Shown here piece by piece: positions 2,667 through 58,473 of a stretch of 64,000 nucleotides of DNA. Position numbers and translations under genes: made by a program. This DNA is from an uncultured virus (IMG/VR IMGVR_UViG_3300017782_000010) (Duplodnaviria > Heunggongvirae > Uroviricota > Caudoviricetes), in IMG/VR virus record IMGVR_UViG_3300017782_000010. One strand, given 5' to 3'. The number at the start of each line of letters is the position of its first letter. Position 1 is the first letter of the stretch. A model generated the notes under the pieces. The model saw nothing but the letters and a program-made list of their open reading frames with translations. It had not been told where the DNA came from and ran no database searches.

Positions 2667-3199
2667 TGGGAAAACGCAGTGAATTTGAAAGAATACCCAG
2701 AGACTTTTATCCTACACCATATTCGGCCGTAGAACCTCTTATTGCACATCTACCAGAATGGTACACATTCATGGAGCCTTGTGCTGGTGACGGTAGATTG
2801 ATTGACCATCTTGAGAGTAATGGTGGTAAATGCACACACGCATATGATATCGAACCACAGGACAGTAGAGTTATTCAGTATGATGCTTTGTTATTACAAC
2901 AAGTAGAAACACCATATATAATAACGAATCCACCTTGGAATCGTAAGATATTACACCCCATGATAGAGAGGTTTTCTGCAATGGCCCCCACTTGGTTATT
3001 GTTTGATTCGGATTGGATGCATACAAAACAGTCAATTCCCTACTTGACAAAACTGAAAAAAGTTGTTAGTATAGGTAGAGTCAAGTGGATTGAAGGGAGT
3101 TCTAGTGTTGGTAAAGACAATTGTTGTTGGTATTTGTTTGAAAATACCCCACAAGTCAAACCAATCGAATTCTGGGGTAGGCAGAATGTCGCACCTTAA
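2666..3199 (+). CDS. DNA amino (N6-adenine/N4-cytosine) methyltransferase
   Basis: DFYPTP, EPCAGDG SAM-binding motif, ITNPPW catalytic motif. Confidence 0.8.
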   Translation: MGKRSEFERIPRDFYPTPYSAVEPLIAHLPEWYTFMEPCAGDGRLIDHLESNGGKCTHAYDIEPQDSRVIQYDALLLQQVETPYIITNPPWNRKILHPMIERFSAMAPTWLLFDSDWMHTKQSIPYLTKLKKVVSIGRVKWIEGSSSVGKDNCCWYLFENTPQVKPIEFWGRQNVAP

Positions 3200-3217
3200 A
3201 AAAGTTATAAAAACATC

Positions 3218-3246
3218 TTGACATTTGTTATTAAAACGTGTATTAT
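3218..3246 (+). promoter_or_regulatory. Sigma70-type early promoter with shared TGTT..AAC spacer motif
   Basis: TTGACA-17bp-TATTAT; spacer tttgttattaaaacgtg. Confidence 0.8.
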
Positions 3247-3282
3247 GTAATAGTAAAGTGAGAAAACAAAGGAGATTATATC

Positions 3283-4242
3283 ATGGCACACGAACTTGAA
3301 ATTGTAAACGGACAGGCACAAATGGCATACGTTGGTGACCTTCCATGGCATGGACTTGGTACAAAGGTTGAGGCAGACCTCACACCAGACCAATTCCAAA
3401 AAGTCGCTGGACTTGATTGGGAAGTGGAGAAACAACCACTGATGACACCAAACGGTGTTAAAGTTCCAAACAAGGAAGCACTTGTAAGAACCTCTGACAA
3501 CTCTATTCTTGATGTTGTTGGTACAGGTTGGAATCCTGTACAGAACTCAGAGGCATTTGAATTCTTCCATGAGTATGTGATGGCAGGTGACATGGAAATG
3601 CACACTGCTGGTTCACTGAAAGATGGACAAATGGTTTGGGCACTTGCAAAGTGTAAAGAATCATTTGAATTGTTTAACGGTGACGTTACAGAGAACTACT
3701 TCTTGTTCTCAAACCCACACCAGTTTGGTAAGGCGATTAACATTCGTATGACACCAATTCGTGTGGTTTGCAACAACACTCTTACACTTTCTCTTTCACA
3801 GAATGCAGATAAGATGGTAACGGTAAATCACCGTAAGGCCTTTGACCCTGCTGAGGTGAAGGCACACATGAATATTGCAAATGAGAAAATGCAAGAGTAC
3901 AAATCAATGGCTGCGTTCCTTGGTTCAAAGAAGGCAACTGGTGATAATGTCATCCAGTACTTCAATGAAGTATTCGGCGCTCCTGCCAAAGAGAAAGTAG
4001 ATGGTGAACTTCCATTTACAACTCGTAATGCGAAACTCGCCTACGAAAACCTTGATGTCCAACCTGGCGCTAACTTTGCCCAAGGTACTTGGTGGACTGC
4101 CTTCAACTCTGTCACTAACATGACAGACCACTTGCAAGGTCGTTCAAATGATGGACGTTTGGTTTCATCTTGGTACGGACGTAACCGTAAGGTCAAGTTG
4201 AACGCACTTGACAAGGCTTTGGAATACGCCGAAGCCGCCTAA
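3283..4242 (+). CDS. DUF932/LGT_TIGR03299-like phage protein
   Basis: PWHGLG N-terminus, TPIRVVCNNTL motif; strong RBS AAGGAG. Confidence 0.8.
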   Translation: MAHELEIVNGQAQMAYVGDLPWHGLGTKVEADLTPDQFQKVAGLDWEVEKQPLMTPNGVKVPNKEALVRTSDNSILDVVGTGWNPVQNSEAFEFFHEYVMAGDMEMHTAGSLKDGQMVWALAKCKESFELFNGDVTENYFLFSNPHQFGKAINIRMTPIRVVCNNTLTLSLSQNADKMVTVNHRKAFDPAEVKAHMNIANEKMQEYKSMAAFLGSKKATGDNVIQYFNEVFGAPAKEKVDGELPFTTRNAKLAYENLDVQPGANFAQGTWWTAFNSVTNMTDHLQGRSNDGRLVSSWYGRNRKVKLNALDKALEYAEAA

Positions 4243-7224: not shown

Positions 7225-7613
7225 GTTATGAACTGAAAGAATACTTAAAGGCGATAAACAAGACTAAACAAAACCTCATGGACGGTGAGGATGAAATGTG
7301 GGAAAAGAAGTATCCTGCCTTTATTATCAACAAGTGTCTTGCCCCTACAGGTATGCAAGAGTGTCTAATCGTAAATGAGATGAATCGTTTACACCACCTA
7401 GACAACAAACTTCAAAATGACTTTTTACTAAATAGTTTGAGGAGTATGAATAGATATGCTCCTTGGATGAAGGCGAAGAAGTCTAAGAACTTAGAGTATG
7501 TAAAAGAATATTTCGGATACAGTAACGAGAAGGCCAAGGCCGCTCTAGATGTTTTAGATGATGAACAAATCGCCATGATAAAAAGTAAATTGAATAAAGG
7601 TGGAAGAAAATGA
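7221..7613 (+). CDS. gp62: Clamp loader small subunit
   Basis: Synteny 45-44-62-regA; YFGYSNEKA and C-terminal KGG. Confidence 0.9.
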   Translation: MSYELKEYLKAINKTKQNLMDGEDEMWEKKYPAFIINKCLAPTGMQECLIVNEMNRLHHLDNKLQNDFLLNSLRSMNRYAPWMKAKKSKNLEYVKEYFGYSNEKAKAALDVLDDEQIAMIKSKLNKGGRK

Positions 7614-8020
7614 ATGAAACATCGTGGAGTCCAGAGGAGATGTTGGAAGTTCGTCTGAATGAACCAGACGATTTTCTGAAGGTTAGAGAAACCTTATCTC
7701 GTATTGGAGTTGCTTCTCGCAAAGATAAAACACTCTTCCAATCTTGCCATATTTTACACAAGCAAGGTAAATATTACATCGTACATTTTAAAGAATTGTT
7801 TGCATTAGACGGTAAAGATACCAACCTGTCTGAGAACGATATTGCAAGAAGGAATACTATCGCTAATCTATTAGCAGATTGGGGATTAGTAGATGTTGTG
7901 GGAACAACTAAGATTGAGGCAGCACCCTTGTCTCAAATTAAAGTAATTAGTTTCAAGGAAAAGGGTGAATGGAAACTTGAGACAAAATATAATATTGGAA
8001 AAAAGAAAGAAGGTGAATAA
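7610..8020 (+). CDS. regA: Translational repressor RegA
   Basis: DDFLKVRETLSRIG, QSCHILHKQGKYYIVHFKELF. Confidence 0.96.
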   Translation: MNETSWSPEEMLEVRLNEPDDFLKVRETLSRIGVASRKDKTLFQSCHILHKQGKYYIVHFKELFALDGKDTNLSENDIARRNTIANLLADWGLVDVVGTTKIEAAPLSQIKVISFKEKGEWKLETKYNIGKKKEGE

Positions 8021-31394: not shown

Positions 31395-31943
31395 ATGACT
31401 AGATACATTTTTATTTTATTTGGTGTGTTGTTTTTCGCAACGAATTCATATGCACAAACCACAAGTGTGGAAACAACTACTAATAGTAAATCTGATGTTA
31501 CTACATCAGGCAAGACAATTGTTATATCCCCACCACCATCTGCGATTTCGCCAAGTATTGGTTCTTCATCTTCAGACCTTTGTACTACAGGGGTTTCTGG
31601 TGCAGTCCAAACACAAATTCTTGGTGTCTCTACAGGTGAAATGGTAAGGGATGAAAATTGTGAACGTCTAAAGATTTCAAAGACACTCTATGATATGGGC
31701 ATGAAAGTGGCCGCAGTATCAGTCCTATGTCAAGACCGTAGAGTTTATGACGCAATGGAAATGGCAGGCACACCCTGCCCGTTCTTGGGTAAAATCGGTG
31801 AGCAGGCAACCGATGAGTGGAAAAGTAATCCAGACAGAATTCCACCTGTCGAAAGAATAGAGAAAAAATCAGATGTTCAAAAAAGAAACGCTACTATCGG
31901 CGCTACTGTTGGTAGTCTTGCTTTGCTTCTCCTCTTACTCTAA
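31395..31943 (+). CDS. Secreted/membrane Cys-containing protein
   Basis: Signal peptide, PPPSAISP, MEMAGTPCP, C-terminal TM. Confidence 0.65.
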   Translation: MTRYIFILFGVLFFATNSYAQTTSVETTTNSKSDVTTSGKTIVISPPPSAISPSIGSSSSDLCTTGVSGAVQTQILGVSTGEMVRDENCERLKISKTLYDMGMKVAAVSVLCQDRRVYDAMEMAGTPCPFLGKIGEQATDEWKSNPDRIPPVERIEKKSDVQKRNATIGATVGSLALLLLLL

Positions 31944-33861
31944 CGCACAAGTAACTTGTTCAACAGACGGTACTACTAATCCATTAGCAGGCAATGGCAC
32001 CTGTCTAGACCCCAACGATAATACTGTTCAACAAATTATAGACCAAGGTGATTTTGGCACAGGTAGTCATAACACTGGAAGTTCTCATAATCAGATGTAT
32101 CAGATGACGGACAGAAGAACTGGTGCAGTTTTGTCTACTGATTACATTATGCACTTCTCGTATACTGACGATACATGGATAACCAATCTGGCTATCAATC
32201 AAGCGTTAGTTGGTGCTGGGTTTGATATTGCTGGTTACATAACAGAATGGGAATGGAAAAATGAAACCACGAATACAATAAATGGTGCTTGTACAGCAAC
32301 AAAAGTAAACGGTGATTGTTTAGATGATTTAGTAATCACTGTCGATGCATTTGCTTCTGGTACTAACATTTATTCTGAAGAGTGGGATTACAGTCAAACA
32401 AAATCAAATGGATATACGGTTGAGGAAGTATTAAGTTTTGCTCCATTAGCATTAGTGCCAGGCGTAACTATTGACCAAATTGAAGTAACTATCCGAGGCA
32501 AAGACAATGGTTATTGGCAAGGTATGCACGGCCCAAAGGTGAAGAACTTTACTGGTAGTGTAGTTCTTATGCCAGATACCTGTACACTCAATGGAGCGCT
32601 ATCTGATGCCTCCTGTCCTGGCTATGCAAATGCGTTGTTTCAACAACAATGCACTTCCAATCCATTATTTGACCCATCTTGTTCAGGCTATGCGGCTGCA
32701 TACTTGACACAACAGTGTTCTGCAAATCCTTTGTATGACCCTGCCTGTCCTGGCTATGCAAACGCATATTACAATCAACAATGTCAACTCAATCCACTAT
32801 ATGATAGTGGATGTACAGGATACAAGACCGCATATTACAATCAACAATGTCAACTTGACCCACTATATGATAGTGGGTGTACAGGGTATAAGACTGCATA
32901 CTTCAATCAACAATGTTCGCTAGACCCCCTCTATGACCCATCATGCCCCGGCTATGCGTCAGCAAACCTTGCAAAACAATGTGACTATGACCCACTATAT
33001 TCGGTGGAGTGTACTGGATACCAACAAGCATATCTAGAACAACAATGTGAATTAGATTCATTATATGACGTACAATGTCCAGACTATCAAACCGCAATAG
33101 AACTTACAAAGATTGTTGACAATGGTAGGACAGATGACCCTACAATTATAAACAATGAAATAGATGTTACTACAACAACTGAAATTGAAGGTTTACCAAA
33201 TGTATTGACGTTACCAGATGTACAGACAGTTGTGGTTGAAGAGATTGATGACGGTGAAGGTTTTCAAGAAGTCGAAGATAATATCAGAGGTGACCAACTT
33301 GCAATGGAAGATGACATCGAAAAAGAAATTGAAGAACTAGAAGGTCAAACTGGTAATACTGCAATGGATGATGACATTGAGAAAGAACTTGCAGAAGTAG
33401 AGAATGAAGCAAGCTCTGGTGATGGTAACACAAACCAAGAGGACGATATTGAGAAAGAACTTGCAGAGTTAAAAGAAAATACATCTGAAGATGAAGACTT
33501 TCAAGACCCAACTAAAAAGACTGTTGTAGATAAATCATCAGAACAAAAGATTGGAAAGAAGAAAGTAGTAGAGAAGAAGTCAACTAAGAACGACAAGATA
33601 AGAATGTTGTTGGCCCAGAAGGCGATTGAGTTGACAAAGAAGATTGAACAAGAAACGAATTTGGAAAACCAAATGTTAGTACAACGTCAACTCCTTGCAC
33701 TGATTTCGTATGTGCCTGGATTTGACTATGCAGAAAAGAAGAACAAGGATAATGATTTCTATCCAGACAAACCAACTGTAGACCATGCGTTTGCAAGATG
33801 GTTTTTGAATGACCCCAATTTCGACACGATGGAAAACTTACAATATCCAAACTTAAACTAG
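31873..33861 (+). CDS. Exported protein with Cys-rich 22 aa repeats and acidic repeats
   Basis: Signal peptide; QQCxxxPLYDxxCxGY repeats; EDDIEKELAE repeats. Confidence 0.7.
   Translation: MFKKETLLSALLLVVLLCFSSYSNAQVTCSTDGTTNPLAGNGTCLDPNDNTVQQIIDQGDFGTGSHNTGSSHNQMYQMTDRRTGAVLSTDYIMHFSYTDDTWITNLAINQALVGAGFDIAGYITEWEWKNETTNTINGACTATKVNGDCLDDLVITVDAFASGTNIYSEEWDYSQTKSNGYTVEEVLSFAPLALVPGVTIDQIEVTIRGKDNGYWQGMHGPKVKNFTGSVVLMPDTCTLNGALSDASCPGYANALFQQQCTSNPLFDPSCSGYAAAYLTQQCSANPLYDPACPGYANAYYNQQCQLNPLYDSGCTGYKTAYYNQQCQLDPLYDSGCTGYKTAYFNQQCSLDPLYDPSCPGYASANLAKQCDYDPLYSVECTGYQQAYLEQQCELDSLYDVQCPDYQTAIELTKIVDNGRTDDPTIINNEIDVTTTTEIEGLPNVLTLPDVQTVVVEEIDDGEGFQEVEDNIRGDQLAMEDDIEKEIEELEGQTGNTAMDDDIEKELAEVENEASSGDGNTNQEDDIEKELAELKENTSEDEDFQDPTKKTVVDKSSEQKIGKKKVVEKKSTKNDKIRMLLAQKAIELTKKIEQETNLENQMLVQRQLLALISYVPGFDYAEKKNKDNDFYPDKPTVDHAFARWFLNDPNFDTMENLQYPNLN
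32575..33100 (+). repeat. About 8 degenerate 66 bp tandem repeats (in frame)
   Basis: CAACAATG-like starts at 32644, 32710, 32776, 32842, 32908, 32974, 33040. Confidence 0.85.
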
Positions 33862-41889: not shown

Positions 41890-41918
41890 TTGACTTTGTT
41901 CTCAAAACATCGTATAGT
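41890..41918 (+). promoter_or_regulatory. Sigma70-type early promoter with TGTT..AACA spacer
   Basis: TTGACT-ttgttctcaaaacatcg-TATAGT. Confidence 0.8.
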
Positions 41919-41947
41919 GTATATGTAATTGAGAGAAAGGACTTCAA

Positions 41948-42190
41948 ATGACAAATCAAGAAACAATTTTTATCGGTGCCGACAACGGTGGTATTAAAGT
42001 TTACAAAGGTGTTGGTAACAATGTTGGGTTTGCAAAGACCGCCAAGATGCTTGCATATATCCTTGACACCCACAAGATTTACGGTGAAGTGATGTTCACA
42101 AGCAGCATGGACTTTGCTGATGAGTATGGGTTTGACCACTATAACGGTGCGAAAGACCTTTGGAATGAAGCTGTTGAGATGAGGGTTTAA
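41948..42190 (+). CDS. Hypothetical early protein
   Basis: RBS GAAAGGA; SSMDFADEYG motif. Confidence 0.7.
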   Translation: MTNQETIFIGADNGGIKVYKGVGNNVGFAKTAKMLAYILDTHKIYGEVMFTSSMDFADEYGFDHYNGAKDLWNEAVEMRV

Positions 42191-42645: not shown

Positions 42646-42674
42646 TTGACATTGTTCTGATAACATGATAGCAT
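42646..42674 (+). promoter_or_regulatory. Sigma70-type early promoter with TGTT..AACA spacer
   Basis: TTGACA-ttgttctgataacatga-TAGCAT. Confidence 0.75.
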
Positions 42675-42698
42675 ATGTATAGAAAGTGAGGAAATATT

Positions 42699-43055
42699 AT
42701 GAGTTTAAAAGTTTTAGAGTTTGAAAATGATGATGCATTGAATACCAATGGTTATCATTATATCAGTTGTGTTACTACCACTTATGACAAGTTGGTAGAG
42801 ATTTTTGGTAAACCAACATACACAGATGCAGACCCATATGAAAAGGTCAATGCAGAGTGGACTATCGAGGCCAAGGTTGTCGATGGAGATGATGACCCAG
42901 ATGATTACTATTACAAGGGGTTCACCGTCTACAATTGGAAAACTGGTTACATTCCTACTGAGGAATACGAGTGGCACGTTGGTGGTAAAGATTATGAGTC
43001 AATGGAGGCTCTGCATGAAATCTTTGAGAATCACATAAATAAATCTAAAGGATAA
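42699..43055 (+). CDS. Hypothetical early protein
   Basis: YDKLVEIFGKP, KVNAEW, TVYNWK, WHVGG motifs. Confidence 0.7.
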   Translation: MSLKVLEFENDDALNTNGYHYISCVTTTYDKLVEIFGKPTYTDADPYEKVNAEWTIEAKVVDGDDDPDDYYYKGFTVYNWKTGYIPTEEYEWHVGGKDYESMEALHEIFENHINKSKG

Positions 43056-44765: not shown

Positions 44766-44984
44766 ATGGAAGTAAGGGTCAGAAAGGGTAGAGATGGTAA
44801 ACCAGATGTTAATGGTGCCATTCGTGTACTAAAGAAGAAACTTATGAAGGAAGGGTTCTTTCAAGAACTAAGAGCCCGTGAATCTTTTATGAGTAGGGGT
44901 GAAAAGAAACGCAAACAAAAGGCCGCAGGCCGAAGACGTTGGTTGCGTAATCAGGCAAAACTGAAGGATGAGAGAGGTTACTAA
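44766..44984 (+). CDS. rpsU: Ribosomal protein bS21
   Basis: VRV..VNGAIRVLKKKLMKEG..ELRARE..EKKRKQKAAGRRR. Confidence 0.85.
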   Translation: MEVRVRKGRDGKPDVNGAIRVLKKKLMKEGFFQELRARESFMSRGEKKRKQKAAGRRRWLRNQAKLKDERGY

Positions 44985-44985
44985 A

Positions 44986-45381
44986 ATGCCAAGACGTAAA
45001 ATGACACCAGAACAGAGAGAGGCTGCCGCAGAACGGTTGCGTCTTGCAAGGGAAAAAAGGTTGCGTGAGAACCCACCTAAGTATTCTAATATACACCCAT
45101 CTGTTTTGACGTTACCAGATGAACATCCATTCTCAAGAGTGAATGTTACAAAGTATATCAAAACCCAGAAGGAACAGCTTTCTTCATATCGGGCGGCGGT
45201 ACGTCAAAAGGTAAAGGGTGCGATTGCAAACGAAGCATCATGTAAGGCGTATATTCGACACTGTGAAACGTACTTACGAAATGGTGATTGGTGTGATGAC
45301 TTCTATGGTGAATACCAAGAGAAGCGAGTTAAGTGGGTGACTGTTGTGCCTGCTGGTCGGAAGGTGGATGATGACGGATGA
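44986..45381 (+). CDS. Conserved T4-like hypothetical protein
   Basis: AAERLRLAREKR, YLRNGDW.DDFYGE. Confidence 0.65.
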   Translation: MPRRKMTPEQREAAAERLRLAREKRLRENPPKYSNIHPSVLTLPDEHPFSRVNVTKYIKTQKEQLSSYRAAVRQKVKGAIANEASCKAYIRHCETYLRNGDWCDDFYGEYQEKRVKWVTVVPAGRKVDDDG

Positions 45382-46643: not shown

Positions 46644-47102
46644 ATGGCAGTGAATACATATACACCTTTACTACATGAGGTGCTGAAGAAAGTTCATAAT
46701 GCAAAGACTAAAGAGAAGAAGATTGAAATTCTTAGAGAGAATAATAGTGATGCATTGCGAATGATTATTAAGGGTTCATTTGACCCTAAAATCGAATGGA
46801 TTTTACCACCTGGCGAAGTTCCTTTCAACAGAAACGAAGCCCCAGATGGAACTGAACACACTTTACTCTTCCAAGAGTCAAAGAAGTTATACAGGTTCAT
46901 CAAAGGTGGTGACAACCAAACACCGCAATGGAAGAAGGAACAGATGTTCGTTCAGATGTTGGAAGGTCTGTCTCAAGGCGAGGCAGAGGTGGTAGTGGCC
47001 GCAAAGGATAAAAAATTACATCAAGTCTATAAAGGACTTTCGGCGGTTGTTGTCAAAGAAGCGTTTGGGTGGAATGACGAATTTGTTGACCCAAATAAGT
47101 AA
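46644..47102 (+). CDS. Conserved T4-like hypothetical protein
   Basis: LPPGEVPF, KKEQMFVQMLEGL. Confidence 0.7.
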   Translation: MAVNTYTPLLHEVLKKVHNAKTKEKKIEILRENNSDALRMIIKGSFDPKIEWILPPGEVPFNRNEAPDGTEHTLLFQESKKLYRFIKGGDNQTPQWKKEQMFVQMLEGLSQGEAEVVVAAKDKKLHQVYKGLSAVVVKEAFGWNDEFVDPNK

Positions 47103-47108
47103 AACTTC

Positions 47109-47137
47109 TTGACATTTTGGTACTGATGAGGTACTAT
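47109..47137 (+). promoter_or_regulatory. Sigma70-type promoter for the sRNA
   Basis: TTGACA-17bp-TACTAT. Confidence 0.75.
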
Positions 47138-47142
47138 GATTA

Positions 47143-47265
47143 AAGACTTGGTAATGAGGTTGTTATGAAACGGAACACGACTCCTCTCTCTCTCACTTTC
47201 AGTGTTCCAGTGATTCGGCGTGATTTGCTAAAGTCTTGGGGGGAAACGAACTTTCCCCCCTTTTT
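47143..47265 (+). ncRNA. Candidate sRNA with anti-Shine-Dalgarno CU-rich loop
   Basis: Long interrupted hairpin AAGACTT/AAGTCTT and GGAACAC/GTGTTCC, 23 nt CU loop, own terminator. Confidence 0.65.
47238..47265 (+). terminator. Intrinsic terminator
   Basis: GGGGGGAAA-CGAAC-TTTCCCCCC-TTTTT. Confidence 0.85.
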
Positions 47266-47313
47266 CTTTTCTAAACCCTTGATTTTCAAGGATTATTTAG
47301 TTCGTTTTTTCCC

Positions 47314-47342
47314 TTGACATTGTTATCAAAACATAGTAGCAT
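47314..47342 (+). promoter_or_regulatory. Sigma70-type early promoter with TGTT..AACA spacer
   Basis: TTGACA-ttgttatcaaaacatag-TAGCAT. Confidence 0.78.
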
Positions 47343-47372
47343 ATACTTGTAATGATGAGAAAGAGAGTAAAT

Positions 47373-47801
47373 ATGAATTACGTTGTTGTAGAGGGTGGGA
47401 ACAAAGTCCAGAGAGACATTGCCGAGAAGGTAGTGAATTTCATGATTGGTCAGTTGTTACCACGACATCGTACACTGGATATTACAGTTCAGTTAAACAA
47501 GATGAATGATGACGCAATCGGTTACTGTCAGATGGAAGATACCAATCGTGAGTTCATCATCGAAGTTGACAAGACCATTGGTATCAAAGAGTTGGTGACC
47601 ACAATTTGTCATGAGATGATTCATGTCAAACAGTATGTCCGAAATGAAATGAACGATGATTTGGTCGAGAATGGCCAGGCCGTTTGGAGAGGTCGTAAGG
47701 TCAACCCAAACACAAAGTATTACGACTTACCTTGGGAGAAGGAAGCGTATCGTCTACAAGACAAATTTGCAAACCTAGTATGGAAAGAGGAGATTATATA
47801 A
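47373..47801 (+). CDS. Zn metallopeptidase-like protein
   Basis: HEMIHVKQ (HExxH), PWEKEAY. Confidence 0.75.
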   Translation: MNYVVVEGGNKVQRDIAEKVVNFMIGQLLPRHRTLDITVQLNKMNDDAIGYCQMEDTNREFIIEVDKTIGIKELVTTICHEMIHVKQYVRNEMNDDLVENGQAVWRGRKVNPNTKYYDLPWEKEAYRLQDKFANLVWKEEII

Positions 47802-52673: not shown

Positions 52674-53098
52674 TGTATCAATACAAATGTAAATTGGTGA
52701 AAGTAGTTGATGGTGACACAATTGATGTTGACATTGACTTGGGCTTTGGAGTGTGGTTACGCAAACAACGGATTCGTATGTATGGTATCGACACACCAGA
52801 ATCTAGAACCAGAGACTTAGAAGAAAAGAAATATGGATTGGCCGCAAAGGCGTTCCTAGAGAAATGGACAAACGCTGGTCATCTTGTTCTTAGAACATTT
52901 AAGGATGGTAAAGGTAAGTATGGTCGTATCCTTGGACAGATTTGGTACGAGGACACTCACAATATTAATCAACTTCTAATCGACAATCATCATGCGGTTG
53001 CATATCATGGTCAATCAAAACAAGAGATTGCTGAGGAGCATATCAAAAACAGAGAGTTCGTTAATCTTAACGATGCTGTAAAATCCCTTGACAATTGA
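52673..53098 (+). CDS. Thermonuclease (SNase-like)
   Basis: VVDGDTID, RMYGIDTPE, KYGRILG. Confidence 0.9.
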   Translation: MYQYKCKLVKVVDGDTIDVDIDLGFGVWLRKQRIRMYGIDTPESRTRDLEEKKYGLAAKAFLEKWTNAGHLVLRTFKDGKGKYGRILGQIWYEDTHNINQLLIDNHHAVAYHGQSKQEIAEEHIKNREFVNLNDAVKSLDN

Positions 53099-53118
53099 AT
53101 CAGTCTTTGGTATAAATA
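53088..53118 (+). promoter_or_regulatory. Overlapping sigma70 and late promoter for tmRNA
   Basis: TTGACA-17bp-TATAAA, within TATAAATA. Confidence 0.75.
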
Positions 53119-53123
53119 TAATA

Positions 53124-53410
53124 CAGTTTGATGATACAAATCAAAGGACGGACAGGACATGGGGGCAGTACCCATCGCCTCCACCATAACTACTCTTAGA
53201 TGAGATAGTGAATCACTGCATGAGAGTAGTTATGATGGGGGCGAACTAGGTTCGACTGACGTAGATAGAGGCGAGTAGAATTGTCGGATGACTGCGTAAT
53301 AGGTCAAAACTCGTAAATGCAAACGATAACAATGCATATGTAGATTACGCTCTCGCAGCCTAATCGTACTGAGTTTCGGTGGTGTACTTGGAAACAGAAA
53401 CACCACCACT
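53124..53410 (+). ncRNA. ssrA: Circularly permuted two-piece tmRNA
   Basis: T arm ATGGG-GGCAGTA-CCCAT and CGCCTCC-ACCA (ends 53186) precede the 5' GGGGGCG (53237); G3:U70 pair; tag ANDNNAYVDYALAA at 53319-53363. Confidence 0.95.
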
Positions 53411-53426
53411 TAATTTTGGAGATAGT

Positions 53427-53918
53427 ATGTATAAGGTGACAGGACAGTTTAAAGAACGCAAGGTAGTAAAATACTTTGTTGACCTGTATGACGCTATTGA
53501 TTTTAAGGATAATGTGGATGCACACTATCCAATGAAACTGACGATGGAAAAGGTAATTGATATGAGAGAATTTATTCATGACAGTTGGCACAGTGTAATG
53601 AATGCCGACAAGAACCCACTAAGACATATCCCAGATACTAATACTAGACATATGGTACTACAGGTACTTGCATGGATGTGGTGTATTGTATTTTCAATGT
53701 GGATTGGTAGTTTTTGGGTTATGGGTGTAAGTATGATTGCCCATGCCTTGATACTTGCGGCCATTGTAATTACAGTTGCAACCTTTGAGACTGCAAGATT
53801 ACGTCCTACATTCTTTATGCACTTTCCTACATCGACACCAAGTCGTGCAAGAGATATCTGGATTGACGGTAAGAAAATTAAACTAGACCCACAAGATAAA
53901 GGTGGTGAACATGAATAA
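53427..53918 (+). CDS. Membrane protein; possible second start at 53562
   Basis: NPLRHIPD..HMVLQVLAWMWC, two TMs. Confidence 0.65.
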   Translation: MYKVTGQFKERKVVKYFVDLYDAIDFKDNVDAHYPMKLTMEKVIDMREFIHDSWHSVMNADKNPLRHIPDTNTRHMVLQVLAWMWCIVFSMWIGSFWVMGVSMIAHALILAAIVITVATFETARLRPTFFMHFPTSTPSRARDIWIDGKKIKLDPQDKGGEHE

Positions 53919-57954: not shown

Positions 57955-57990
57955 ACTAAATACTATTGAAGTCATCAGTAGGAGAGAGAG

Positions 57991-58473
57991 ATGATTGAGG
58001 TAGTCGCCGCTGTGTCAGCGGCATCGAGCGCCTTTGGCGCCATCAAAAAAGGTTTTGAGGTCGGTAGAGATATTGAATCCATGGCAGGCGATTTAGGTCG
58101 CTGGATGGGTGCAGTATCAGATATCAAGAAGGCCGAAGAGTATAATAAGAAACCACCCCTGTTTAAAAAACTGTTTGCGGCCGGTTCTGTTGAAGAAGAG
58201 GCCATGCAAATATTCATGGCCAAGAAAAAGGCCGATGATATGCGTGAACAGTTACGTCAAATCATTACCTATACTAGAGGGCCAACTGCATGGCAGGAGC
58301 TCTTGAAAACAGAGGCGGATATACGCAAGAAACGTCAGAAGATGATTTATGACCAAAAGGAAAGACAACGTAAGTTTGTAGAGTACACACTCGCATTTAT
58401 ACTTGTTGCGATAACATCTGCCTTAATTGTTTGGGGTATCTATTTCATCATGGATGTAAAAGGAATGTTGTAA
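57991..58473 (+). CDS. Membrane-anchored hypothetical protein
   Basis: GRDIESM..DLGRWM, SVEEEA, C-terminal TM. Confidence 0.7.
   Translation: MIEVVAAVSAASSAFGAIKKGFEVGRDIESMAGDLGRWMGAVSDIKKAEEYNKKPPLFKKLFAAGSVEEEAMQIFMAKKKADDMREQLRQIITYTRGPTAWQELLKTEADIRKKRQKMIYDQKERQRKFVEYTLAFILVAITSALIVWGIYFIMDVKGML

Follow-up and report, generated by a model that had tools for sequence, protein, structure and literature searches.

The question raised by this locus is whether the short interval between two protein genes of a marine phage holds a stand-alone regulatory RNA and, if it does, which messages this RNA would recognize. The locus lies in the 64,000-nucleotide (nt) DNA stretch of an uncultured virus (IMG/VR record IMGVR_UViG_3300017782_000010), hereafter called the window. 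An initial annotation, made from the letters alone, had read it as a small RNA (sRNA) whose apical loop is antisense to the leaders of a class of early phage genes. The unit occupies positions 47109-47270, between a DUF6433 gene (46644-47102) and a SprT-like gene (47373-47801), and our analysis indicates that it is a real, uncatalogued phage small-RNA gene. In our preferred interpretation, to which we assign a probability of roughly 0.55, it specifies an RNA of about 125 nt, belonging to a family of its own, whose CU loop acts as an antisense on phage leaders and holds down their translation. The window itself is part of a marine T4-like myophage with nearly all of its genes on the + strand, including recognizable genes for RegA, gp59, gp32, an RNase H/flap endonuclease and baseplate components. 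Among named phages, the Methylophilales (OM43) phages Melnitz come closest, with approximately 70% nucleotide identity across part of the query, and one IMG/VR record (G001) is 100% identical to the window at 47000-47400.

The promoter, the interrupted hairpin and the terminator were all found where the initial annotation had placed them, on the + strand. The sigma-70-type (early) promoter at 47109-47137 (TTGACA-17 nt-TACTAT) matches 10 of 12 consensus positions. It is followed by an interrupted hairpin of approximately 95 nt (47143-47237), in which an outer stem (47143-47155 with 47225-47237) and an inner stem (47170-47178 with 47202-47211) carry a 23-nt apical CU-repeat loop at 47179-47201, GACTCCTCTCTCTCTCACTTTCA (= GACUCCUCUCUCUCUCACUUUCA). 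The loop sequence occurs once in the window, has a predicted unpaired probability of 0.96 and contains the conserved core ACUCCUCUCUCUCUCACUU, the proposed seed. A conserved 5' internal region, UGAGGUUGUUAUGA (47156-47169), combines a Shine-Dalgarno (SD)-like GAGG with an AUG and resembles a T4 RegA operator. The intrinsic terminator (47238-47270; GGGGGGAAA/UUUCCCCCC plus a U run) has a stem at 47238-47260 with nine pairs, six of them G-C, followed by TTTTTCTTTT; in relatives the stems differ yet still pair. The 133-nt segment 47138-47270 folds at -40.4 kcal/mol, compared with a mean of -30.75 kcal/mol for shuffled sequences (standard deviation 3.77, z = -2.56), and folds as stable were obtained in 2 of 200 shuffles. 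Folding energy by itself is modest evidence, and the comparative evidence is strong.

A DUF6433 protein search of IMG/VR returned 518 relatives, for which 80 loci were kept. The small-RNA unit was present at the same place in 31 of these 80 loci, including every locus with at least 79% DUF6433 protein identity (31 of 31), and was represented by 16 distinct sequences. Both promoter hexamers, the hairpin and the terminator were kept in all 16 variants, and the same hairpin architecture was the minimum-free-energy fold in 15 of them. The hairpin was 83-89% identical to the window copy, compared with 71-75% for the flanking coding DNA and 40-84% for the spacer that follows the terminator. Because the stems were misaligned, RNAalifold applied to MAFFT alignments gave consensus structures that were poor or spurious, and a model-based realignment of 15 sequences was used instead to measure covariation, together with an alignment-free test on the stem flanks described below. 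In the realignment, 98% of stem cells pair, and two inner-stem pairs changed on both sides while remaining paired (7 cells), with a covariation score that was reached by none of 500 shuffles. Ten of the 13 outer-stem pairs are invariant and therefore uninformative on structure. Except for the length of its (CU)n tract, the loop core did not vary among the variants. Loss of loop conservation was named at the outset as an observation that would speak against a functional RNA, and the loop proved to be both conserved and exposed, in the window clade as well as across the family. When the window and 72 other sources were searched with the model of the window clade (R1), no second copy came to light. 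Against Rfam 15, the small RNA matched no family, C4 and sRNAs with anti-SD loops included, at gathering or relaxed thresholds (best sub-threshold match of 20 bits for a cut-off of 50), a transfer-messenger RNA (tmRNA) being the sole match in the window, and the same search on eight related loci returned only transfer RNAs (tRNAs).

Beyond the window clade, a regular expression that demands a sigma-70-type promoter gathered 55 unique promoter-plus-hairpin units, falling into 23 stem classes, with the CU-repeat loop kept throughout. The 5' and 3' flanks of the same unit pair at a mean of -21.0 kcal/mol, compared with -12.3 kcal/mol for 2474 non-cognate combinations, of which 6.8% reach the cognate median. 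This flank test, which needs no alignment, is evidence that the stems evolved by compensatory change while the loop was conserved. An exact scan for the loop core CTCTCTCTCAACTCTCTC in IMG/VR retrieved 44 stretches, consisting of 36 units, three target sites and five unrelated sequences, and a metagenome pattern scan retrieved at least 117 stretches, with three family members among the matches listed. In the distant loci L035-L083, the SprT-like gene lies further downstream than in the window, and the layout upstream of it comprises a sigma-70-type promoter followed by a CU-loop hairpin of unlike stem, typically with the loop CCUCUCUCUCAACUCUCUCUC; the variant CUCUCUCAACUCUCUC is present in some clades. 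On the 3' side of the hairpin, these distant relatives carry a tRNA-Gly(UCC), an aberrant tRNA-like sequence or an intrinsic terminator, and then a TGTT-N5-AACA promoter. The tRNA-Gly(UCC) directly follows the hairpin in L036, L042, L058, L081 and L082, and where a tRNA follows, RNase P would free the hairpin RNA as the 5' leader of that tRNA. The tRNA-like sequence seen after the hairpin in L037 (~3150-3225) and L068 (4144-4215) has a 6-bp anticodon stem and a 5-nt loop; it is not called by ARAGORN, scores 44.8 bits with the Rfam tRNA model in L068 and looks like a degenerate tRNA-Gly.

The window copy shares the features of this family, with its own promoter a few bases 5' of the hairpin, a CU-repeat apical loop on covarying stems, and a position 3' of the DUF6433 gene and 5' of a TGTT-N5-AACA promoter and the SprT-like gene. 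Relatedness is also recognizable at the 5' end (TATCATGATTAAAGATGG in L068, TACTATGATTAAAGACTTGG in the window). A covariance model of the tRNA-linked clade (R2) left the window copy unmatched at E <= 1 and gave 16.5 bits (E = 0.57) for L028, a member of the window clade. Because R2 misses the window copy, its family membership rests on synteny, the L068-like 5' end and the loop type. With the same model, the cultured phage Melnitz-1 gave a match of 51 bits (MZ577095.1 37293-37349); this copy has its own promoter and terminator, a 15-bp stem with perfect pairing and the loop ACCUCUCUCUCGACUUUCUCUCUCA, and is located upstream of the SprT-like gene as in the window. Its stem differs from that of the window copy and its loop is bipartite. 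Of note, the coding sequence (CDS) Melnitz1EXVC043M_65 (hypothetical protein; L235 3034-3213 = MZ577095.1 37295-37474) spans this hairpin, its terminator and the next promoter, and is probably not a protein gene. In the alignment of the tRNA-linked clade (A5), the central CAACU of the loop perfectly complements AGUUG of the 3' stem, whose usual partner is CAAC of the 5' stem; RNAalifold chose the loop pairing instead, and a conformational switch is thus conceivable. Judged by these comparisons, the window RNA is one clade's version of an uncatalogued family in marine T4-like phages of the Melnitz/pelagimyophage type.

To identify candidate targets, we ranked 90 translation-initiation regions of the window by their best duplex with the conserved loop core. 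The genes of the window phage mostly use AGGAG-type ribosome-binding sites. The first rank went to the leader and start codon of a late gene on the + strand (57976-57993, CAGUAGGAGAGAGAGAUG), in which a (GA)5 run abuts the AUG (-20.0 kcal/mol). The ribosome-binding region of gene 44986-45381 (44969-44976, + strand, -19.4 kcal/mol), another candidate target, ranked second, and the leader of 60830, on the minus strand, ranked third. The class of early genes singled out by the initial annotation came next. It consists of the genes behind promoters with a TGTT-N5-AAC motif, of which the window has exactly four when the motif alone is taken as the definition. All four leaders are on the + strand. 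The fourth rank was taken by the second promoter of the locus (TGTT-N5-AACA in its spacer) and the GA-rich leader of the SprT-like gene (47314-47372), which is conserved in the window clade; its candidate site at 47356-47368 is an imperfect match with a predicted duplex of -15.2 kcal/mol. Rank 5 is the candidate leader of gene 3283-4242 (3255-3274, -17.5 kcal/mol), which includes an exact 9-mer loop complement, AAAGTGAGA, at 3255-3263. The candidate leader of gene 41948-42190 (41930-41941) has rank 6 with an imperfect match at -14.8 kcal/mol, and that of gene 42699-43055 (42682-42690) has rank 14 with another exact 9-mer, GAAAGTGAG. Hence, two of the four matches originally quoted were exact and two imperfect. 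The four leaders were enriched among the 90 regions (one-sided Mann-Whitney p = 0.0014). Their pairing with the loop (-14.0 kcal/mol) was better than that of every one of 200 composition-preserving loop shuffles (-8.7 ± 1.6 kcal/mol; 0/200 as good), and the comparison with shuffled controls suggested at the outset thus came out in favor of the early leaders. The proposal that early-gene leaders are the targets was therefore borne out as far as their enrichment is concerned (ranks 4, 5, 6 and 14), and not as regards the first three ranks, which belong to other leaders.

The promoters of this region carry further repeats. The TGTT-N5-AAC(A/G) inverted repeat lies in the -35/-10 spacer of the promoters at 3218-3246, 41890-41918, 42646-42674 and 47314-47342, has been conserved among relatives and resembles an operator to which a DNA-binding protein might bind. 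The spacer of the small-RNA promoter contains a repeated RGTACT-N5-RGTACT that overlaps the -10 hexamer (47115-47137); in some relatives this repeat is a true palindrome, AGTACTTATGAAGTACT, and it may represent another operator, unlike the first. A small inverted repeat, CCTTGATTTTCAAGG, is conserved at 47277-47291, in the interval that separates the terminator from the next promoter; in relatives, this CCCTTGA...TCAAGGG hairpin precedes a T run and has the appearance of a second terminator.

The late gene with the best-ranking leader (57991-58473, + strand) encodes a protein of 160 amino acids (aa) with a C-terminal membrane helix, belonging to PHROG 32327 ('unknown function'). Searches for this protein found no Pfam family, and only hypothetical viral clusters in Atlas. 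A late-promoter-like motif resembling TATAAATA is located at most 60 nt upstream of its homologues in 67 of 78 loci. Among the leaders of these homologues, 22 of 78 have an uninterrupted GAGAGAGAG, 21 of 78 have GAGAGUGAGAGG, and 2 of 78 have both; in the window clade the leader is conserved as (C)A(G/A)UGGGAGAGAGAGAUG. The predicted fold of 57956-58030 has the start codon base-paired to a UCAUC upstream of it and the GA run in a hairpin loop of 13 nt, so that contact with the small RNA would be a loop-loop kiss; pairing of the start codon is also possible in window-clade relatives (UCGUC with GAUGA).

Covariation between loop and leaders in related genomes, a check called for by the initial annotation, was seen for this late gene and was not shown for the early class. 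The syntenic slot of three relatives (G005, G006 and G007) is occupied by a small-RNA unit whose loop has the sequence CCUCUCACUCUCUC. For G005 and G006, this loop exactly complements the leader of the phage's own 57991 homologue, over 15 and 14 nt, respectively, and these sites are the longest exact loop complements in the whole contigs. In G007, the loop/leader helix is kept through G·U pairs. Cognate loop/leader energies in the three genomes ranged from -28 to -30.5 kcal/mol, compared with -13 to -21 kcal/mol with the leaders of other clades. In the window clade, an uninterrupted loop goes with an uninterrupted (GA)5 late leader, (C)AGUGGGAGAGAGAGAUG, forming helices of 10-15 bp including G·U pairs in four contigs. 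A different target was found in G003, where a 20-nt perfect complement of the phage's own loop, GUGAGAGAGUUGAGAGAGAGGC, lies directly 5' of an AUG at the ribosome-binding site of a gene for a 137-aa membrane-anchored protein, approximately 13 kb from the small RNA. The 20-nt site is also found 5' of the same gene in L301 and L310 (three contigs in all); only 2 of the 36 homologue loci examined have it, the third carrier coming from the exact scan. No homologue of this gene was found in the window. The initial reading thus appears partly right. The RNA is predicted to be antisense to phage leaders, but its strongest and only co-varying target, as far as the compared sequences go, is a late gene, and shut-off of translation would be a possible effect of such pairing.

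In our preferred interpretation, host sigma-70 RNA polymerase would transcribe the small RNA from its own early promoter, and the intrinsic terminator would end the transcript. The hairpin, whose stem varies freely, would display the conserved CU-repeat loop as an antisense seed, and this loop would pair with GA-rich ribosome-binding leaders, best with that of late gene 57991-58473 and next with those of the four TGTT-N5-AAC early genes. Such pairing would cover the SD and start region and hold translation down until the mRNA outnumbers the small RNA. On the late mRNA, a stable early RNA would impose a threshold, and the protein would be delayed for as long as the RNA is in excess over late transcripts. 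The sequences show the anatomy, conservation and non-coding nature of the gene, the covariation of its stem, the conservation of its loop, the ranking of complementary sites and the co-variation of loop and leader between clades; that the RNA is transcribed, that it pairs with its targets inside the cell and that it represses instead of activating are what we infer from these features. Such pairing usually leads to repression by occlusion, and activation by hairpin remodelling may be possible.

Several observations weigh against this interpretation. The gene list behind the ranking was our own, crude and with a few hand corrections, and in an unrestricted scan of the + strand the four early leaders ranked lower (14, 28, 37 and >40). 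The loop and its targets are low-complexity sequences, GA-rich tracts are the normal form of ribosome-binding sites, and loop energies correlate with anti-SD energies (Spearman 0.36). The loops of the window clade discriminate leaders poorly, with -20 to -27.6 kcal/mol for their own leaders and -19.7 to -25.3 kcal/mol for those of G005-G007, so that the co-variation rests on about two independent lineages. Neither GA motif is present in 37 of the 78 leaders of 57991 homologues. The Melnitz genome (141.5 kb) has no loop complement longer than 10 nt and no 57991 homologue, and G002 has no internal loop complement longer than 12 nt. The leader of the SprT-like gene was considered as a universal target and rejected, since these leaders vary strongly from clade to clade and in many cases show poor complementarity to the cognate loop. 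In the predicted fold of the late leader, the AUG is part of a stem and the GA run is looped out, an arrangement with which activation is compatible. Moreover, only low-depth contigs from RNA libraries cover the small-RNA region, from which transcript ends or abundance cannot be read. Among Logan contigs, one run (X1) gave a 183-nt contig over 47141-47323 (depth 3.8), and another (X2) a contig over 46848-47220 that crosses from the upstream gene, both at depths like those of neighbouring genes. Because contigs show neither ends nor levels, and DNA carry-over is possible, they speak neither for nor against a discrete transcript. Finally, the slot of the small RNA in G008 and G009 (L421-L424) is occupied by a conserved 52-codon open reading frame (ORF) with two hydrophobic helices (MISFGIGM...DSSLSTL...FMIRGVYVM...), which has a CU tract, GACUCCUCUCUCUCAAC, in its coding sequence. 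Since this tract and the GAUUCG...CGAAUC pair that flanks it are common to the ORF and to the RNA of G005-G007, the RNA and the 52-codon gene share ancestry in some direction. The ORF may belong to a dual-function RNA, or else the non-coding form may have arisen from it or given rise to it.

Some of these observations would be expected if the RNA were aimed mainly at the host. Its CU loop would then mimic the anti-SD end of 16S rRNA and mask purine-rich ribosome-binding sites of host mRNAs, of particular genes or of many, with the phage-internal matches being secondary or clade-specific. Melnitz and G002, which carry the RNA without an internal target beyond 10-12 nt, fit this explanation, as does the correlation between loop and anti-SD energies. 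The 5' part of the loop, CUCCU, complements the AGGAG used by most genes of the window phage, and CU-loop sRNAs of Alphaproteobacteria are proposed to act by masking ribosome-binding sites (PMC4615179). Perfect complements of 14-20 nt at ribosome-binding sites of related phages, however, track the loop variant, and we consider a mainly host-directed RNA unlikely.

More doubtful is an elaboration in which an early, persistent RNA titrates the mRNA of the late 57991 membrane protein, which is possibly lysis-related, and works as a timer. The loop could kiss the GA-repeat loop of the leader, the protein appearing once late transcription outruns the RNA, and in relatives whose bipartite CUCUCUC-AA-CUCUCUC loop is mirror-symmetric the two arms could grip the purine strand as a pyrimidine-purine-pyrimidine triple helix.

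The RNA might instead be a protein-binding decoy, whose unpaired 5' arm, GGUAAUGAGGUUGUUAUGAAA, imitates an initiation region and titrates RegA, or whose CU tract binds S1 or Hfq. We treat the decoy as a minor rival because the 5' arm, GAGGUUGUUAUGAAA, resembles the T4 RegA site obtained by SELEX and the window has a RegA gene of its own (7610-8020; Pfam Translat_reg, E = 1.4e-45). Within the arm lies UUGUUAUG, which forms the core of the SELEX consensus aaAAUUGUUAUGUAA (an A+U-rich unstructured AUG site; PMC3014915), and the internal regions are as conserved as the loop though predicted to be largely unpaired. However, UUGUUAUG is found in only 10 of the 16 variants, the other six having UUGUAAUG and GAAG instead of GAGG, and the arm is absent from other clades, which keep the CU loop only. 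The RegA specificity of the window phage is, moreover, extrapolated from the T4 consensus only, and a decoy function seems improbable to us.

Even less credence can be given to the view that the unit is a functionless, decaying remnant, either of the 52-codon membrane-protein gene of G008/G009 or of the 5' leader of tRNA-Gly. That gene sits in the same slot and its ORF, including the GACUCCUCUCUCUCAAC tract, aligns with parts of the window RNA, and the hairpin lies directly 5' of tRNA-Gly(UCC) in five relatives. A remnant would hardly be better conserved than the neighbouring genes, have its promoter and terminator intact in 16 of 16 variants, keep its loop over 23 stem classes with compensatory stems, and persist in lineages that lost the tRNA. 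Lastly, a small protein from ATG 47165, for which an SD-like GAGG 5 nt upstream and a 50-codon frame (47165-47317) could be cited, is close to refuted by the sequences, as this frame crosses the terminator and enters the next promoter, stops come after 11-25 codons in 14 of the 16 variants with the frames of the other two overrunning the RNA end, and indels (1, 2 and 4 nt) together with a varying (CU)n length place the CU tract in three frames, the resulting peptides having 11 to >35 residues and none being conserved, in agreement with the stand-alone non-coding gene first proposed.

Bacterial base-pairing small RNAs that have pyrimidine loops are well documented, and to our knowledge phage-encoded examples come mostly from prophages. 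The C4 RNA of P1/P7 and the CI RNA of P4 reportedly expose loops that pair in trans with the ribosome-binding region of phage mRNAs, and both are said to serve immunity in temperate elements. C4 is also said to be set free by RNase P, and the tRNA-linked relatives of the window RNA would take the same route. The window RNA differs from both in having no sequence or Rfam match to them and in being part of a T4-like genome; no genes for lysogeny were seen in the window. Closer in design are the cuckoo RNAs of Alphaproteobacteria (RSs0680/CcsR, SmelC397 and others), which have compensatory variable stems and a conserved anti-SD-like pyrimidine loop, and for which occlusion of ribosome-binding sites is the proposed action, as it is here (PMC4615179). 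Their loop, CCUCCUCCC, is carried on two to four adjacent hairpins of bacterial chromosomes (PMC4615179), whereas the window RNA has a CU-repeat loop (CUCCUCUCUCUCUCAC; CCUCUCUCUCAACUCUCUCUC in relatives) on one hairpin of a lytic-type T4-like phage with candidate phage-internal targets. Of the motif and architecture that define cuckoo RNAs, the window RNA has neither, and it is not a member.

In T4, the RegA and RegB proteins shut off early mRNAs post-transcriptionally at ribosome-binding sites (PMC3014915). This is the function that the initial annotation proposed for the small RNA, but it is exerted by proteins, of which RegA is also encoded in the window. As of 2010, according to the same review, no small trans-acting regulatory RNA had been functionally characterized from T4 (PMC3014915). 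The small stable RNAs rnaC and rnaD of T4 lie in a tRNA cluster, a linkage shared by relatives of the window RNA. Unlike the window RNA, they are located 3' of tRNA-Arg and have tRNA-like arm ends and no CU loop, and inspection of the T4 sequence revealed no similarity. The non-coding RNAs listed for T4-like cyanophages (CfrI, PhotoRC-II, wcaG, manA, glnA and abiF) do not include the CU-loop family (PMC9964418). Our searches of the literature gave nothing on this family under phage-encoded anti-SD sRNAs, sRNAs of lytic phages or small RNAs of pelagiphages and Melnitz-type phages. The terms 'sRNA' and 'small RNA' are absent from the main text of the Melnitz paper (PMC9004378), its supplementary tables lying outside this term search.

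The CU-loop family is widespread in ocean viromes, and its candidate phage-internal targets change together with the loop. If the preferred interpretation is true, the timing of gene expression in marine phages that are among the most abundant would gain a layer of control by RNA, and at least one database CDS would be corrected to an RNA gene. The idea is directly testable, because a family member is present in a cultured pair, phage Melnitz and OM43 strain H5P1.

Two other features of the window were observed. A permuted, two-piece tmRNA gene of the alphaproteobacterial type lies at 53084-53454 (Rfam alpha_tmRNA, 123 bits; ARAGORN tag ANDNNAYVDYALAA), with its own CTTGACA promoter starting at ~53087; this feature has already been described for Melnitz-type phages (PMC9004378). 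In addition, a 66-nt unit is tandemly repeated four times at 32614-32957 (60-73% identity to the reference copy), inside the long ORF 31873-33861, and indicates that this ORF encodes a repeat-containing Cys/Tyr-rich protein.

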